The notes under the pieces: model-generated | Told to the model about the DNA's origin: nothing | Database searches by the model: none | What the model saw: only the letters and a program-made list of their open reading frames with translations | Virus record (IMG/VR): IMGVR_UViG_2690316233_000014 | Origin: a virus | Lineage: Duplodnaviria > Heunggongvirae > Uroviricota > Caudoviricetes | DNA: 11,758 nucleotides | Strand: one strand, 5' to 3' | Position numbers and translations under genes: made by a program | In this document: piece after piece, positions 5,463 through 10,751 of the stretch | How the letters are laid out: the number at the start of each line of letters is the position of its first letter | Numbering within the stretch: position 1 is the first letter of the stretch

Positions 5463-5848
5463 GGCTGGTATCCCGTCACGCGCTGCCACTCCTGCGAGAA
5501 GAGGGCGGAAAGGCGGTTAAATTCAGCGGTGTATTCACTCAGCGAGGCACACCCGCCAGCAGTGCGATGCGCCAGCATTGCTGCAAATACGGAGGCCGGG
5601 GAGTCGTAATACGCCAGCAGTGATTCGCCGTGCGGTGTCAGGCAGTGTAACGCCAGTCCGTGTGGTGTGAAATCCACGCGGTAGCAGTCGTCTACTGTGA
5701 AATAAAGGGTGTCTGCATTCTCCGGTTTTGTGGTGCGTGCTCTGTTGTCACGACCACGGATGTAGAGATCAAATAACCCCTGAAGAACGGGAGCCAGACG
5801 GGTGTCCTGTGTGCGCACCCATCTTGTGAAGTCATGAGCGTCAATCAT
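5459..5848 (-). CDS. hypothetical protein, 129 aa, translationally coupled to Rep
   Basis: ATG at 5848-5846, TGA at 5459-5461 overlapping the Rep ATG. Family not recognised. Confidence 0.6.
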   Translation of the reverse strand: MIDAHDFTRWVRTQDTRLAPVLQGLFDLYIRGRDNRARTTKPENADTLYFTVDDCYRVDFTPHGLALHCLTPHGESLLAYYDSPASVFAAMLAHRTAGGCASLSEYTAEFNRLSALFSQEWQRVTGYQP

Positions 5849-5920
5849 GCTGCAATTCTCTTTACTACAGATGTGCGAAGGCCTCCCGCCGCAAGGTGCA
5901 GGAAAGGCCCGGAACAGGAA

Positions 5921-6151
5921 TTAATGGAGTTTGTTTTGCTGCTGGATGAGCTGTTGAAGCTCGTGCAGATCATCCGCCAGATAGCTGAAAACAGAGGCGG
6001 AATAAATGTTTGATAGTGCGTGGCTGCGCTCATGCAGCATATTGATGTGCATGATTTGCGCGACGCGTGATGCGCGGGAAAGTCTGCGGTTGATTTCAGT
6101 CTGGATGTGACGACGCTCCGCGATAGCGCGGTGCTGTTTGCGGTCTGCCAT
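5921..6151 (-). CDS. small basic helical protein, 76 aa
   Basis: ATG at 6151-6149 with AGAGG 8 nt upstream, TAA at 5921-5923. Translation MADRKQHRAIAERRHIQTEINRRLSR... is protein-like; preferred over the overlapping Ser/Arg-rich 205-aa track ORF. Confidence 0.55.
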   Translation of the reverse strand: MADRKQHRAIAERRHIQTEINRRLSRASRVAQIMHINMLHERSHALSNIYSASVFSYLADDLHELQQLIQQQNKLH

Positions 6152-6194
6152 GGTGTGGCCTCTTTGCTCGGTGATAGAAATAACTCACCATCCA

Positions 6195-6386
6195 GAGTTG
6201 AGAATCTCGGGGTGGCGAGACGTACAGGGTTCTCAACACCGGAGAGCAAAGAATCCGGCCCGACCGAAGTCGGCCCCGTACGCCCCGCCATAATTCTGAC
6301 GCGAAAAAGACGTGGCAATACAGTACGCACAAAAAAACCGCTTGCGCGGTTATGCGCTTTGCTCTGTATCGGGTTGAGAATCCCGG
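6195..6386 (-). ncRNA. candidate cis-regulatory or small-RNA leader with three related boxes
   Basis: On the + strand, box A GAGTTGAGAATCTCGG (6195-6210) and box C GGGTTGAGAATCCCGG (6371-6386) are 14/16 identical. Box B AGGGTTCTCAACACCGG (6226-6242) is complementary to both over 10-12 bp. A GGCCGAC-UUCG-GUCGGCC hairpin (6257-6276, - strand RNA) and a terminator lie between them. No ORF with a plausible RBS. Confidence 0.4.
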
Positions 6387-6455
6387 CACCCGTTTTATGA
6401 GGTGCAGCGGAAATGTAACCTGACCGATTGAGGCATGGCAAGCGGTTTTTTTGTG
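6328..6455. repeat. perfect 18-bp inverted repeat CACAAAAAAACCGCTTGC / GCAAGCGGTTTTTTTGTG flanking a 92-bp segment
   Basis: Left arm 6328-6345 and right arm 6438-6455 are exact reverse complements. The left arm is half of the - strand terminator; the right arm with CCGATTG...CAAGCGG plus a T7 run resembles a weaker + strand terminator. Confidence 0.55.
6330..6352 (-). terminator. intrinsic terminator or attenuator inside the leader
   Basis: On the - strand: AACCGC-GCAA-GCGGTT followed by seven U residues (GNRA-type tetraloop). Located upstream of the 76-aa, 129-aa and Rep genes. Confidence 0.45.
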
Positions 6456-6473
6456 TGTGCATGTTCTGGTTTC

Positions 6474-6773
6474 TTACTGGTTCAGAAAAAAATCAAAAAC
6501 GTTATCGATGCGTTGCAGCAGCTCTTGCTGCATTGCTTCCGGCGTTTCCGGTTCGCCAGGTGCCCCCAGCGTTGCGCAGAAATCAGCGATTTCATGATGG
6601 AGCGTCAGGCGAATGGCAGGAGCCGTGGTTCTGGCGTGCTCCAGCTCATTCAGCAGTGCCAGCACAGCAGACGGCGAGAGCATTGCGCGAAATGCCAGTA
6701 ATTTTTGAGGCGTTGCCATTCGTTGCAGGGCAAATGCCAGTTCGCGTAGCTTCTGGTGGTTGATGGTGCTCAT
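6474..6773 (-). CDS. hypothetical protein, 99 aa
   Basis: ATG at 6773-6771 in an ATGA overlap with the upstream stop; TAA at 6474-6476. Family not recognised. Confidence 0.6.
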   Translation of the reverse strand: MSTINHQKLRELAFALQRMATPQKLLAFRAMLSPSAVLALLNELEHARTTAPAIRLTLHHEIADFCATLGAPGEPETPEAMQQELLQRIDNVFDFFLNQ

Positions 6774-7036
6774 GCTCTGGCTTCCTTCAGTAGCTGGTTA
6801 AACATGTGAGTAAGTGGATTGCTACACCCGAACGGCATCGGGTTTACGTGGTAAGAAGCCTGGCCTCCTGTTTTGCGAGCGCGACCACCTGTGCTGCGGT
6901 TTGTTCTGATGACTAAGCCGCCGCGCCAAAGTCGGCGTAACTCAGCATTAATGGCTGTGGTTGGGGTGTTCAGTGCTGCGGCGATTTCTCCGCCGCTACA
7001 ACCCGGATGTGTAGTGATGTAGTCCAGAATGGTCAT
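6770..7036 (-). CDS. probable winged-helix DNA-binding protein, 88 aa
   Basis: ATGA overlaps at both ends. The segment SGGEIAAALNTPTTAINAELRRLWRGGLVIRT has a wHTH-like pattern; assignment is by pattern only. Confidence 0.55.
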   Translation of the reverse strand: MTILDYITTHPGCSGGEIAAALNTPTTAINAELRRLWRGGLVIRTNRSTGGRARKTGGQASYHVNPMPFGCSNPLTHMFNQLLKEARA

Positions 7037-7236
7037 TTGCGTGGCTCCTGTACCTGTCGGATAAGATTCACCCGCGCCACGTTGGTGGCGCAGAAGTAAG
7101 TGCCGTCAGTGAGGTAGATGTGGTGTGCATCCTTTTCCGAACGATGTTTGTCGATAGTGGTAATCAGGCGTTCGTCGACCTCGTATTCGCGCCCTCTGGA
7201 GGTAAAGCGAATGACGGGAAAATGCTTAATTGCCAT
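7033..7236 (-). CDS. hypothetical protein, 67 aa
   Basis: ATG at 7236-7234 with AAGGGGG upstream, TGA at 7033-7035 overlapping the next start. Confidence 0.55.
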   Translation of the reverse strand: MAIKHFPVIRFTSRGREYEVDERLITTIDKHRSEKDAHHIYLTDGTYFCATNVARVNLIRQVQEPRK

Positions 7237-7259
7237 TGCGCCCCCTTTGTCCAGTAACC

Positions 7260-7676
7260 CTATGCGTTAAATACGGCACGTTGCGCGTCATCAATGAATA
7301 CAGCTTGAGATCGTTCTATCAGGCGGAGATTTGTCAGAAGCTCTGACTCTTTTGTGTGGTAAGGCGTTATCAGGTATTTGCCGTGCAGTTCGGCAATAAT
7401 GGTGTATTGCGTCATTATTGCCGAACCAAGAATGTAAATGCGGCGTCCAATGCTGGACGGATTCATGGCTGCAACTGTTGACTGTGTTTTAAGAGTGTCG
7501 ATTTCTTTGCTCTGTTCCTCAATAATTTTGGCTGCTTCAGAGGGGGCTATTGCGATGGTCAGTGCGTAAAGCGCTGCCATATGTTGATTATCTTTCTGGG
7601 CTGCCCTGGACAGCTTGTCTTGCTCTGCTGACACTATTTTTAATGTATTGATAATATTTTTTTCTCTTGCGTTCAT
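7260..7676 (-). CDS. hypothetical protein, 138 aa
   Basis: ATG at 7676-7674 with GGAG 8 nt upstream, preceded by about 100 nt of non-coding sequence containing repeats. Confidence 0.6.
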   Translation of the reverse strand: MNAREKNIINTLKIVSAEQDKLSRAAQKDNQHMAALYALTIAIAPSEAAKIIEEQSKEIDTLKTQSTVAAMNPSSIGRRIYILGSAIMTQYTIIAELHGKYLITPYHTKESELLTNLRLIERSQAVFIDDAQRAVFNA

Positions 7677-7725
7677 TTTATATCTCCGTTATTTACGTGT
7701 GCGAATACCTCCGCGAATGCGGATA

Positions 7726-7754
7726 GTTTTCAGGTTTTCAGGTTTTCAGGTTTA
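7726..7754. repeat. tandem octamer GTTTTCAG, about 3.6 copies
   Basis: Copies at 7726-7733, 7734-7741 and 7742-7749 plus a partial copy. Sits in the gap between the 37-aa ORF stop and the 138-aa start; the palindrome TCCGCGAATGCGGA (7709-7722) is adjacent. Confidence 0.6.
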
Positions 7755-7776
7755 ATCTGGTGTTTTGTTTAAGCTG

Positions 7777-7890
7777 TTATTTGTCAGTGAAAAAGCGTTC
7801 AATCTTTTTTACTGAATGAATAATTCGCATAATCCCAATGGCGCAGGCCACCGAAATAATCAGAACAAGCCATGAGATAAATATACTCAT
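7777..7890 (-). CDS. small membrane peptide, 37 aa, absent from the ORF track
   Basis: ATG at 7890-7888 overlaps the TGA of the upstream 80-aa ORF (ATGA); TAA at 7777-7779. Hand translation MSIFISWLVLIISVACAIGIMRIIHSVKKIERFFTDK: one transmembrane helix and a basic C-tail. Confidence 0.5.
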   Translation of the reverse strand: MSIFISWLVLIISVACAIGIMRIIHSVKKIERFFTDK

Positions 7891-8129
7891 GCGATATTCC
7901 CCAGCTTATACGGTTCAATGTGTTCCCCGCATTCTGCGGCACAGATCAGCTCGGAAAGTTCGTTCAGTGCATCCAGATCATCAGCGTAAAAAGCAACGTC
8001 ATACAAACTCCGGATTGCCCTGGTCAATGAATCACGGGCTGCATGTTCAGCATGAGCGCCTGATGCACTTAAGCGAAAATAAAATCGTTCAAGTGCTTTG
8101 TTAATGAGAGTTTTATATTCTTTGCCCAT
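7887..8129 (-). CDS. hypothetical protein, 80 aa
   Basis: ATG at 8129-8127, TGA at 7887-7889; fits the - strand operon and is coupled to the downstream small ORF. Preferred over the antisense + strand ORF 7838..8104. Confidence 0.55.
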   Translation of the reverse strand: MGKEYKTLINKALERFYFRLSASGAHAEHAARDSLTRAIRSLYDVAFYADDLDALNELSELICAAECGEHIEPYKLGNIA

Positions 8130-8140
8130 CGCAACGCCCT

Positions 8141-8419
8141 TTAATCTGCTTTCTGAATTTCAGCTTCTGAATCCATACAAATAATTTCGATATAGGGTTC
8201 ATCGCCATTAACCTGACGTGCCTTTTCAGCTTCGCTAATGATTTCTCGTACGGTCTGGTACGGAAGCTCCACAGTCAGGCGCGTACCGTTCAGATAAACG
8301 TAAGTAGCTGCGTTTTTTTCGGATGGAACAACTCCGTCAATTGCTGATGCGCGTAATAACAGTTCACCGCGAAAATCAATAAAACGGATAAATACACCTT
8401 GTGCATGCTCTTTGGTCAT
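8141..8419 (-). CDS. hypothetical protein, 92 aa
   Basis: Internal ATG at 8419-8417 preferred: it lies 10 nt after the upstream stop with AGGTG in between, whereas the track start at 8479 is TTG and overlaps the upstream gene by 50 nt. Confidence 0.55.
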   Translation of the reverse strand: MTKEHAQGVFIRFIDFRGELLLRASAIDGVVPSEKNAATYVYLNGTRLTVELPYQTVREIISEAEKARQVNGDEPYIEIICMDSEAEIQKAD

Positions 8420-8429
8420 AAAGCACCTG

Positions 8430-8780
8430 TTATAAATCAGCCTGTTTAATAAAACTTTGCCCGCGAAGCAGACGATCAACCGTGCGAAGTGCTTCGTATA
8501 ATGTGAAATCCTGCCCGAAGTGATTGTCGCCGCAGTTCAATGCAAAAATGCGGTTTCCGGTAAATGGATTGCGTGGGCATTTGTGGACCACGATTCCAGC
8601 TTTCTCAATCAGCCAGGCATGCTCGCCGATTTGTTTTACAGCGTGGCCATCCGGTGTTGCGTGCGTCTCGTTCAGGTTATAGCGACTGTTACTACGTGAT
8701 GCACTGGTAGCGACGTGGTGTACATGGCGTTCTACGCCATTACGAAATTTGGAGTATGGATTATTAGCGTTTTTTTTCAT
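8430..8780 (-). CDS. hypothetical protein, 116 aa
   Basis: ATG at 8780-8778, TAA at 8430-8432. Verified codon by codon against the track translation. Family not recognised. Confidence 0.6.
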   Translation of the reverse strand: MKKNANNPYSKFRNGVERHVHHVATSASRSNSRYNLNETHATPDGHAVKQIGEHAWLIEKAGIVVHKCPRNPFTGNRIFALNCGDNHFGQDFTLYEALRTVDRLLRGQSFIKQADL

Positions 8781-8801: not shown

Positions 8802-9005
8802 TTAGCTGTTAGCCAAAGCGTCTTTTAACATCGCCACAAGGTTTACTTCAGGCTTTTCCATTTTGGCGCGTTTGGGGCGGATAATAATTCGACCGTCAGC
8901 CAACATCTTTTTGCATGTATTAAGAGGGATACCTGTTATCTCTGCATATTTCTGCAGGGATACATAGGGGGCATTCACATTGATATTGATGGTTATACCT
9001 GACAT
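8802..9005 (-). CDS. Cox/Apl-like small HTH protein (candidate excisionase / lytic-side regulator), 67 aa
   Basis: Strong AGGAGG 8 nt upstream of the ATG at 9005-9003. The segment PYVSLQKYAEITGIPLNTCKKMLADGRI follows the pattern of P2 Cox (IPYQEFAKLIGKSTGAVRRMIDKGKLPVI, as I recall it), and its position in the operon divergent from the repressor agrees. Confidence 0.6.
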   Translation of the reverse strand: MSGITININVNAPYVSLQKYAEITGIPLNTCKKMLADGRIIIRPKRAKMEKPEVNLVAMLKDALANS

Positions 9006-9021
9006 CCCACTAGCCTCCTGA

Positions 9022-9228
9022 TCAGGAAGATTTGTTTTGTTCTTTCTGGGTTAGCTCTAGGCCGCGAAGGAAGATCATGCGCGCCATGTTAGAGGATGAG
9101 CGTTGTTCTTTAGCTGCCATTTCATCAATGACGGCTCGCTCCTCGAGGGACAGCCGAAGTGCCAGTCTTGGACCTGTGGCGGTGTTACGCGGAATGCGTG
9201 ATCTGGTATCGTGAAGAACTTGTTTCAT
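9022..9228 (-). CDS. ribbon-helix-helix (Arc/CopG-type) DNA-binding protein, 68 aa
   Basis: RLALRLSLEERAVIDEMAAKEQRSSSNMARMIFLRGLE fits the beta-strand, helix, helix RHH pattern. It is the first gene of the leftward operon; no Shine-Dalgarno before the ATG at 9228, so the mRNA may be leaderless. Confidence 0.6.
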   Translation of the reverse strand: MKQVLHDTRSRIPRNTATGPRLALRLSLEERAVIDEMAAKEQRSSSNMARMIFLRGLELTQKEQNKSS

Positions 9229-9303
9229 AGTGGTATATTGTGATCATCTAATAGCTCGTGAAATCATTTTGGTATCAAAAAAGATACCTGTCAAGGTTTT
9301 TGT
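9229..9303. promoter_or_regulatory. divergent promoter and operator region between the RHH operon and the XRE repressor
   Basis: 75-bp AT-rich gap with an inverted repeat GGTATC-AAAAAA-GATACC (9271-9288), a further TGGTAT half-site at 9231-9236 and a TGATCA palindrome at 9241-9246. Candidate -35/-10 hexamers on both strands are not resolved. Confidence 0.5.
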
Positions 9304-9708
9304 ATGAAAAATGATATTGGTCAGCGGTTGCGTGAGGAAAGGGAAAGATTGGGACTTAGTCAAGTTGCCATGAGCGACATTGGTGGAGTCAAAAAGCTAA
9401 CTCAGCTTAGATATGAGAAAGGAGATAGCTTTCCTGATGCTGCGTATTTGGCAGCGCTGTCTCGTTTTGGCCTTGATGTTCAGTATGTTGTGTTGGGAAT
9501 TCACTCACCTGAAACTTATAACGATGATGAGCAGGAGTTGATTACTCGCTTTCGAGCAGCTTCGTTAGATGTGAAAAACGCGGTGATTGGGGCTTTAAAA
9601 GGTGCGATCAGTGAAAAGGAAACTCAGCCATCAGGACGTGAGTTAAATATTTCTGGTGGTAATAACCGTATCGCTGGTCGTGACTATAACGAAACTAAGG
9701 GTAGGTGA
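9304..9708 (+). CDS. XRE-family HTH repressor (CI/C-like), 134 aa
   Basis: ATG at 9304 with AAGG upstream. N-terminus IGQRLREERERLGLSQVAMSDIGGV is a classic Cro/CI-type HTH. Ends with three tandem in-frame stops TGA TAG TAG (9706-9714). Confidence 0.8.
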   Translation: MKNDIGQRLREERERLGLSQVAMSDIGGVKKLTQLRYEKGDSFPDAAYLAALSRFGLDVQYVVLGIHSPETYNDDEQELITRFRAASLDVKNAVIGALKGAISEKETQPSGRELNISGGNNRIAGRDYNETKGR

Positions 9709-9723: not shown

Positions 9724-10374
9724 ATGGCCGTCAACTCAAACGGTTCAAACAATCGCGTTGCTGGGCGTGATTTTCACGAAAAGAATATTCAGATAGAGCG
9801 ATATGATGGTTCTCATACCGTCAATATCGCAATCCCTTCGAATAATGATGATGACGATCGCCCTTTGCTTAAGGCTCAGCGTAAGGAGCTAAATAGCTTG
9901 GTTGCTGCTATTGCAGAAGCTAGCAATACTGAAGCGTTTATTATTTGGCAAAAAGTACATGCGGAGATTGGTGTAGCTGGTATTGATGATATGACAGTAA
10001 ATCAATATAAAACAGCGGAGAGTTTTCTGCATGCAATGCTTGAGCGATGTAAAGATCATGATGCCTGTAAGGCTCTTGTAAGTTTATTACTACGTAACAG
10101 TGAAGACTGTGGACTTCGACAAAAACTTCTGCGGTATTGCCATATCAATTTCGGTACAGGACGTTTAAACGATCTTACTCGTTCTCAGTTACAGTCTGCA
10201 TTGTCGTGGTTAGAGCAACAATCGGCATCAAGCCACACAGAGAGTTCGACCTTACCAGAAGTCCGACTTCGTGCTTCAGAATTAATCCGACTTTATCCAA
10301 AAGAAATAATATTCTTTATCTGCGTAGGGGTTTTGGTAGGCGGTGTCATTTCTAGGGCGTTTTTTAATTTGTAA
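9724..10374 (+). CDS. tail-anchored membrane protein of unknown function, 216 aa
   Basis: Strong GGGAGGTGA Shine-Dalgarno before the ATG at 9724. C-terminal hydrophobic stretch EIIFFICVGVLVGGVISRAFF. The N-terminal motif SNNRVAGRDFHE echoes GNNRIAGRDYNE at the repressor C-terminus. AT-rich. Confidence 0.65.
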   Translation: MAVNSNGSNNRVAGRDFHEKNIQIERYDGSHTVNIAIPSNNDDDDRPLLKAQRKELNSLVAAIAEASNTEAFIIWQKVHAEIGVAGIDDMTVNQYKTAESFLHAMLERCKDHDACKALVSLLLRNSEDCGLRQKLLRYCHINFGTGRLNDLTRSQLQSALSWLEQQSASSHTESSTLPEVRLRASELIRLYPKEIIFFICVGVLVGGVISRAFFNL

Positions 10375-10403
10375 TCTTACTTGAGCTAAATTGAGGTAAT
10401 GAT

Positions 10404-10751
10404 ATGAAAGTAAAAAATGTTCAACTATTAGTTACTTTTTTATCTATGTTTTCTTTTTCCGCCGTCGCAATGCCTTTTAAAACTATTGAACGTGAGAGTT
10501 TTAATGGGGTATGGCCATTTAATACTGATGAGGTTCAATTACAGTGTCTTGATGGTAATCCTTATGTGATGAATTTTGACGATAATAAGTTATATGCACT
10601 TACAGGTTTGGCTCGAATAAAAGGTAAAACATTTGGTGCGTTACCGTTAGATAACAATAATCCATTTTGGCTAGATAATGATGCCGCCCCAGGGTTAAAA
10701 AAGAGTCTGGGGGATGTCACTAAGGCTGCATTTGATTTATGTGATAAGTAA
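10404..10751 (+). CDS. secreted or periplasmic protein with an N-terminal signal peptide, 115 aa
   Basis: GAGGT 7 nt before the ATG at 10404. MKVKNVQLLVTFLSMFSFSAVA looks like a Sec signal peptide; the mature part has two Cys residues. AT-rich. Confidence 0.65.
   Translation: MKVKNVQLLVTFLSMFSFSAVAMPFKTIERESFNGVWPFNTDEVQLQCLDGNPYVMNFDDNKLYALTGLARIKGKTFGALPLDNNNPFWLDNDAAPGLKKSLGDVTKAAFDLCDK

Follow-up and report, generated by a model that had tools for sequence, protein, structure and literature searches.

At a cistron boundary in the Escherichia coli gal operon, the galE hairpin, an 8-bp stem with a 4-nt loop, serves as an intercistronic exonuclease block that sets polarity (PMC11925234), halting the exonucleolytic trimming that follows Rho termination or RNase E cleavage (PMC11925234). 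The locus described here, an untranslated spacer in the early operon of a P2-family prophage, resembles that system in having a small stem-loop, apparently on the sense strand, with a 4-nt loop, no U-tract and a position at a cistron boundary, that is, at a site where the upstream and downstream parts of an operon could differ in expression. It differs from galE in that the stem has 5 bp rather than 8 bp, in that the element is known from sequence alone, and in its placement, which is 61 nt past the preceding stop codon (in relatives 53 nt), with the next start 32 nt further on.

Two further kinds of described system invite comparison. As at the module boundaries of mosaic temperate phages, a conserved short non-coding sequence lies here at the point where alternative modules are swapped; unlike those boundaries, this one carries a structure with compensatory changes, and these changes indicate a role at the level of RNA rather than merely a patch of homology for recombination. 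The tandem repeat that adjoins the stem-loop recalls simple-sequence contingency loci, being perfect, short and changed by one unit through slippage, but it comprises three units only, and every other sequence examined has two. Moreover, the tract lies in a non-coding spacer without a promoter on the operon strand, in contrast to those loci, so that the gain or loss of a unit cannot switch a reading frame or the spacing of -35 and -10 elements.

The prophage and its early operon

The window, by which we mean the whole stretch of 11,758 nt that was analysed, is an E. coli prophage of P88-like type (Xuanwuvirus, P2 family). When 1 kb around the spacer was used as query, 14 phage records were matched, among them P88, P884B11 and Citrobacter phage Shae_phiSM, as were 1,365 of the 5,426 complete E. 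coli genomes. The prophage adjoins yecA in the closest annotated genome, where it shows the usual P2-like layout of integrase, HTH repressor, divergent Cox-like gene, small early genes and replication endonuclease. The early operon runs on the minus strand of the window. Its conserved front module comprises a Cox-like gene (8802–9005), a DUF4761 gene (8430–8780), an ORF (8141–8479), a DUF4754 gene (7887–8129) and, as the last gene, a homologue of P88 gp07 encoding a 37-aa hydrophobic peptide (7777–7890), the start of which overlaps the stop of the DUF4754 gene (ATGA). Beyond the spacer, on the same strand, are an optional cargo gene of 138 aa (7260–7676; phrog_9338, function not assigned), a 67-aa gene (7033–7236) and a MarR-like wHTH gene (6770–7036).

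Some relatives (L038, L039, L079, L080, L082, L092, L095 and L124) have lost the stop codon of the 37-aa gene, and the ORF then extends to a TAA within the TTAAAT of the spacer, so that change is tolerated at the peptide's C-terminus as well as in the first third of the spacer. The 3' end of the same ORF (7784–7815, minus strand) contains a 12-bp A/U-rich inverted repeat (UCAGUAAAAAAG ... CUUUUUCACUGA) with 11 of its 12 pairs formed and an 8-nt loop. In relatives the one mismatch shifts from pair 6 to pair 5, leaving 11 of 12 still paired, which may reflect structure or merely codon changes. Elsewhere in the prophage, a plus-strand lysogenic operon between repressor and integrase (9724–10751) encodes a 216-aa protein with no assigned function and a 115-aa DUF2511 protein, neither of which was matched by PADLOC; this interval is a typical place for lysogenic-conversion or defence cargo. 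One related locus (L083) is an E. coli-type prophage region on a contig of a Firmicute assembly (NZ_JBQPOM010000071.1, labelled Vagococcus sp. WN89Y) with a 99% identical DUF4754 protein, and is likely to represent contamination or a mislabelled assembly.

Further along the minus strand, an isrK-like sRNA (6331–6405, 63.1 bits) and a C4 antisense RNA (6208–6295, 78.5 bits) both scored above the gathering threshold in Rfam. Both occupy a non-coding stretch of 323 nt, with a 76-aa homologue of the P88 'derepression protein' (5921–6151, minus) encoded downstream. The isrK-like RNA ends in an intrinsic terminator, AACCGC-GCAA-GCGGTT plus T7, which is oriented with the sense strand and lies (at about 6331) inside what the preliminary description regarded as the early operon. 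Direct repeats GATTCTCAAC and GAGCAAAG flank the C4 RNA and are complementary to its loops, and the region is a P1 c4/ant-like or P4 CI-like module, a known arrangement. A predicted 205-aa ORF (5845–6462, minus) crosses both RNAs and has weak PHROG 'transcriptional regulator' matches; as no CDS is annotated in the corresponding 323 nt of the closest RefSeq genome, this ORF is probably spurious and not a gene.

Layout and conservation of the spacer

The existence of a non-coding gap within the phage early operon, and its length, were confirmed: the 37-aa and 138-aa ORFs, both on the minus strand, are separated by exactly 100 untranslated nucleotides (7677–7776), the sole gap longer than 25 nt from the Cox-like gene to the isrK/C4 region. 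No ORF within the spacer is conserved in frame, and an 8-nt indel shifts every frame; a plus-strand ORF of 46 aa (7615–7755) was considered as a small gene and rejected, its frame being broken by the 8-nt indel. Read on the mRNA strand, the gap consists of UAA, the A-rich CAGCUUAAACAAAACACCAGAUUAAAC, three copies of CUGAAAAC, UA, the hairpin UCCGC-AUUC-GCGGA, GGUAUUCGCACACG, the ribosome-binding site UAAAUAACGGAGAUAUAAA and AUG. The conserved 3' flank of the hairpin, GGUAUUCGCACACG (7696–7709, minus), begins with two invariant G that complete a Shine-Dalgarno-like GGAGG. This GGAGG is half buried in the stem, and no start codon lies 3–12 nt past it. The remaining 19 positions (7677–7695, minus) form a module-specific leader with the Shine-Dalgarno sequence UAAAUAACGGAGAUAUAAA of the 138-aa cargo gene.

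Conservation across the spacer was modest in comparison with its flanks, the mean pairwise column identity being 0.82, lower than the 0.89 found at third codon positions of the flanking ORFs. Constraint on the A-runs is striking by eye, yet the difference between A and non-A columns was not significant (Fisher p = 0.07), and we therefore claim constraint only for the hairpin and for the pair of invariant G after it. Single-sequence folds of the gap gave non-significant z-scores of -0.6 to -1.0 on the two strands. Rfam searches returned no gathering-level match in the gap, and chance-level hits only in 7000–8500 (E 2–7, well under the gathering score). Two other candidate functions were set aside: pairing of the spacer with the isrK-like or C4 RNAs of the same prophage was no better than with shuffled sequence, and the Hfq (ARN)n motif reached at most three triplets and is broken in the window's lineage.

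Copy-number history of the tandem octamer

The tandem octamers of the preliminary description (about 3.6 copies, 7726–7754) are real. The unit GTTTTCAG stands in tandem 3.5 times at 7726–7753 (TRF: period 8, 100% matches, score 56), which is the top-scoring TRF array of the window, and the octamer occurs four times in the window against 0.43 expected, a count reached in 0 of 200 shuffles. On the mRNA (minus) strand the array reads as AAAC followed by three copies of CTGAAAAC, one of which is a duplication private to the window; MAFFT places the extra unit at about 7746–7753, although its position inside the array is arbitrary.

Related loci were gathered via the neighbouring DUF4754 protein, via a DNA pattern and from annotated genomes. 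Among 102 distinct versions of the 270-nt locus, the window alone carries three full units and the others carry two. Most relatives carry a pair of imperfect octamers (AAGAAAAY GTRAAAAC); CCCGAAAAC CUGAAAAC is found in about ten versions, and one version (e.g. L001) has two perfect units. The closest relatives, with two units, are 8 nt shorter, and their alignment with the window shows one clean 8-nt insertion in the latter. A 151-nt query matched 748 complete E. coli genomes, none of them at ≥95% identity, and the best matches were 143 nt long. By a more sensitive search, about a quarter of the complete E. coli genomes (1,332 of 5,426) carry the element, and the full-length matches sampled from these genomes all measured 116 nt, against 124 nt in the window. 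In IMG/VR and metagenome contigs the exact three-unit string was present at 75 unrelated loci (74 metagenome, 1 IMG/VR), none of which had the hairpin after it. Arrays of (CTGAAAAC)n with three to seven units were seen in 74 unrelated environmental metagenome contigs (L286–L359); elsewhere, then, the octamer is a generic microsatellite unit, unrelated to this phage.

Since the three-unit allele is absent from all other sequences examined, the third unit is a private slippage duplication on a two-unit template. The suggestion that the tract can slip is thus borne out, the window and its closest relatives differing by exactly one 8-nt unit, but the slip is seen in the window only, every other sequence examined having two units. 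The perfect repeat is absent from most relatives and the copy number elsewhere is two, which takes away most of the case for a functional tract. On these comparisons, the octamer tract is neither a conserved array nor a variable tract. The ancestral state was two imperfect A-rich octamers (AAGAAAAY GTRAAAAC); in one sub-lineage these drifted to CCCGAAAAC-CUGAAAAC and later became two perfect units, and replication slippage then added the third in the window alone.

The functions that had been suggested for the repeat are not supported. As an internal promoter it fails, as there is no sigma-70-like site (-35/-10 with 16–18 nt spacing) on the minus strand of 7677–7776; sigma-32 and sigma-28 motifs were likewise not seen in the gap by eye. 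Nor does it behave as a binding array. The octamer sequence is not conserved, relatives having AAGAAAAY GTRAAAAC, CCCGAAAAC CTGAAAAC or other forms with A-runs alone in common, and no second octamer cluster was found in the window with up to one mismatch allowed, including the Pe/Pc switch region (9005–9304). To judge from these comparisons, the tandem octamer is without array function or evidence of function. A processing site in the gap, also suggested earlier, is possible, with support coming from the hairpin and not from the repeats.

The hairpin beside the repeat

The palindrome reported next to the repeat at 7709–7722 is present, one base to the right of that place at 7710–7723, and is an inverted repeat (TCCGC GAAT GCGGA) rather than a perfect palindrome. 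On the minus strand it corresponds to the predicted RNA stem-loop UCCGC-AUUC-GCGGA, with 5 bp, a 4-nt loop and a stability of about -7.7 kcal/mol. The motif TCCGY-N4-RCGGA occurs once in the window against 0.04 expected. The stem is conserved: across 39 distinct sequences, pairing was retained in 99.0% of cells, compared with 35–60% when the 3' partner was slid by 1–3 columns. Double changes from C-G to U-A have occurred at two of the five pairs, with no single-mutant intermediates observed at pair 3. The observed pairing or covariation score was reached by 0 of 500 shuffles, statistics that are inflated because the sequences are related, the covariation set being a narrow phage group (Escherichia and close kin) to which the DUF4754 family is confined; a scan of contigs for deeper relatives yielded two loci only. 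RNAalifold predicted this helix alone in the spacer, also when given a 290-column alignment reaching into both flanking genes.

The one-sided changes in the stem (U1·G14, U2·G13 and G4·U11) all leave wobble pairs on the mRNA strand, whereas on the plus strand each would be an A·C mismatch that largely collapses the stem. Because every one of these changes is a wobble on the mRNA strand, a hairpin in the sense transcript is favoured, a preference that counts three substitution events (p about 0.125), the double changes fitting either strand. Stability is -7.7 kcal/mol in the common form and -3.7 to -6.2 kcal/mol in variants that keep five pairs; about 7 of 102 distinct versions have A·A or A·G in place of the loop-closing pair, and the loop occurs as AUUC, AUUA, ACUC or AUGC. 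An alternative hairpin with the same 3' arm, GCGGA-GGUA-UUCGC, showed no covariation by eye and was rejected. A scan of the minus strand for intrinsic terminators had no match at the hairpin, which is followed by GGUAUUCGCACACG; as there is no U-tract after the stem, it is not an operon-strand terminator. Together, the alignments favour a conserved, hitherto unannotated intercistronic RNA stem-loop on the sense strand. It is an ordinary kind of element and a minor feature.

A mosaic junction after the hairpin

BLAST homology to P88-type phages ends at 7696, 14 nt past the hairpin, and homology to relatives with other downstream genes stops 0–14 nt after it. Four unrelated modules were found after the hairpin, namely the 138-aa family, P88 gp08 (MAIK...), a gene beginning MLRTNQ... 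and a gene beginning MKQNKED..., each with its own Shine-Dalgarno sequence and a start 27–32 nt after the stem. In P88 the 138-aa gene is absent and gp08 comes directly after the hairpin; in the window, the 138-aa gene is inserted there, with the conserved flank on one side and the gp08 homologue on the other. As homology stops here and unrelated modules follow, the hairpin is part of the conserved upstream module and marks its 3' boundary. Positions 7696–7723 were thus seen as an exchange point for early cargo genes, with at least four unrelated modules in different prophages (also L018, L097 and L002). PADLOC defence families were not found among the neighbouring genes, and the cargo genes after the hairpin have no assigned function.

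Proposed role of the stem-loop

Our tentative reading, to which we assign a probability of roughly 0.45, is that the repeat is a private slip and that the hairpin is a stem-loop of the sense mRNA that closes the front module as an exonuclease block or processing boundary. The spacer would close the conserved front module (cox-like, DUF4761, orf, DUF4754 and 37-aa peptide genes) of the early operon, and the functional element would be the 5-bp stem-loop, with its 4-nt loop, formed in the sense mRNA. It would act after transcription, either blocking 3'-to-5' exonucleases or marking a processing site, with different mRNA stability for the front regulatory genes and the cargo genes as the outcome, and it may also insulate the translation start of whichever cargo gene follows. 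Blocking or processing is the mechanism that we infer, by analogy; the history of the repeat, the hairpin's conservation, covariation and strand preference, and the junction are shown by the comparisons set out above.

In keeping with a boundary role, the hairpin lies in the sole long untranslated spacer of this part of the operon and at a module edge. Against it, a stem of 5 bp, at -7.7 kcal/mol and for some variants no more than -3.7 to -5.5 kcal/mol, is a weak barrier compared with the 8-bp galE hairpin, an exonuclease block leaves unaccounted for the invariant GG that makes the Shine-Dalgarno-like GGAGG, the fold z-scores of the gap are non-significant, and the loop-closing pair is broken in some lineages.

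Alternative explanations

A plainer account, which we consider unlikely, is that the gap provides spacing only: a neutral spacer would be carried along with a conserved module, the hairpin would be a relic (for example, of an old structure sequestering a Shine-Dalgarno sequence or of a terminator), and the covariation would reflect a few related haplotypes. The lower identity of the spacer (0.82) than of third codon positions (0.89) agrees with this, as do the non-significant A-run conservation (Fisher p = 0.07), the persistence of broken loop-closing pairs in some lineages, the fold z-scores of -0.6 to -1.0 and the narrowness of the phage group. It sits poorly with the two independent double compensatory changes, without observed single-mutant intermediates at pair 3, with 99% pairing against 35–60% in the slid controls, and with the invariance of the GG adjoining the stem.

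We think it improbable that the element works on the opposite strand, as an intrinsic terminator made of the hairpin and the T-rich run (the octamer complement) that ends antisense transcription, for instance of a cis-antisense RNA of about 70 nt running from 7628–7655 over the ribosome-binding site of the 138-aa gene. Like a Rho-independent terminator, the plus strand has a GC-rich hairpin beside a T-run, and 7710–7723 plus TAGTTTTC passes a loose terminator scan; in P88-type relatives a better T-run (TTGTTTTT) directly follows the hairpin. A promoter-like CTGACA-16-GATAAT (10 of 12 matches) lies on the plus strand at 7628–7655, antisense to codons 8–16 of the 138-aa gene, and many divergent variants of that gene have a -10-like GATAAT, TATAAT or GATGAT at the same Ile-Ile codons. 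This promoter-like site may be a by-product of coding, and the hairpin is equally conserved before three other modules that lack it. The window holds 30 such terminator-like scan sites against 13.6 expected, so the match at the hairpin is not special. Unlike a canonical terminator, the structure faces against the operon and has a stem of 5 bp only (-7.7 kcal/mol), and the operon strand lacks a U-run after the hairpin. In its natural variants only the mRNA strand retains pairing, the three one-sided changes giving A·C mismatches on the plus strand, where the stem collapses.

Similarly improbable is a Rho-dependent polarity site, in which untranslated, unstructured RNA richer in C than in G would load Rho, the hairpin would act as a pause and the cargo and replication genes would be attenuated, the extra CCUGAAAA unit strengthening the rut site. 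With 20 C and 7 G, the 78-nt segment 7798–7721 does rank highest in C/G along the entire operon strand (top 0.2%), and, apart from the spacer, this part of the operon has no long untranslated stretch. The bias of C over G is found only in the window's sub-lineage, however, most relatives having C/G of 1.1–1.6 (median percentile 0.82); the property that they share is about 50% A, and A-rich RNA is a poor ligand for Rho.

Less probable still is a protein-binding site, with the repeats and/or the hairpin forming either a DNA array for a phage regulator (Cox-like or MarR-like) or a nut-like RNA hairpin to which a phage protein would bind. The hairpin is the size of a boxB, it occupies an early-operon spacer upstream of the sense-strand isrK terminator (about 6331), and a gene for a MarR-type wHTH protein lies downstream. 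Against this, apart from the unconserved octamer sequence and the lack of another cluster in the window, the 8-bp spacing is not helical and the loop varies. The element is common to phages with different immunity regions, and its conservation there argues against a site for immunity-specific Cox or C proteins. By eye, DnaA-box, IHF, CRP, ops/RfaH, boxA and Xer/dif sites gave partial matches only, with none for boxA, ops, DnaA, IHF or Xer that would serve this reading, and no antiterminator family was found in ten neighbouring ORFs (Pfam and PHROGs; arginine-rich motifs by eye only), most of which have no assigned function.

The specific case of a nut-like RNA site for a phage elongation factor, which would let early transcripts pass the isrK terminator (about 6331) and reach the replication gene, is very improbable: a 5-bp hairpin in an untranslated early-operon spacer of a temperate phage, upstream of a terminator, is reminiscent of the lambda-type nut site (boxA + boxB), but the pyrimidine-rich 4-nt loop is variable, there is no conserved boxA (a CAGCTTAAACAA resemblance occurs only in the window's lineage), no N-like family was matched, and antitermination is not known from P2-family phages.

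Implications

With regard to the repeat, the locus illustrates that one private slippage event can account for a perfect repeat, however striking, which calls for caution before such a tract is read as a regulatory array. With regard to the hairpin, the analysis flags an unannotated, conserved stem-loop carried by roughly one in four complete E. coli genomes (1,332 of 5,426). If the sense-strand stem-loop does set an mRNA boundary at the end of the front module, it would help to explain how a P2-type operon can take on new early genes while expression of its front regulatory module is left undisturbed.
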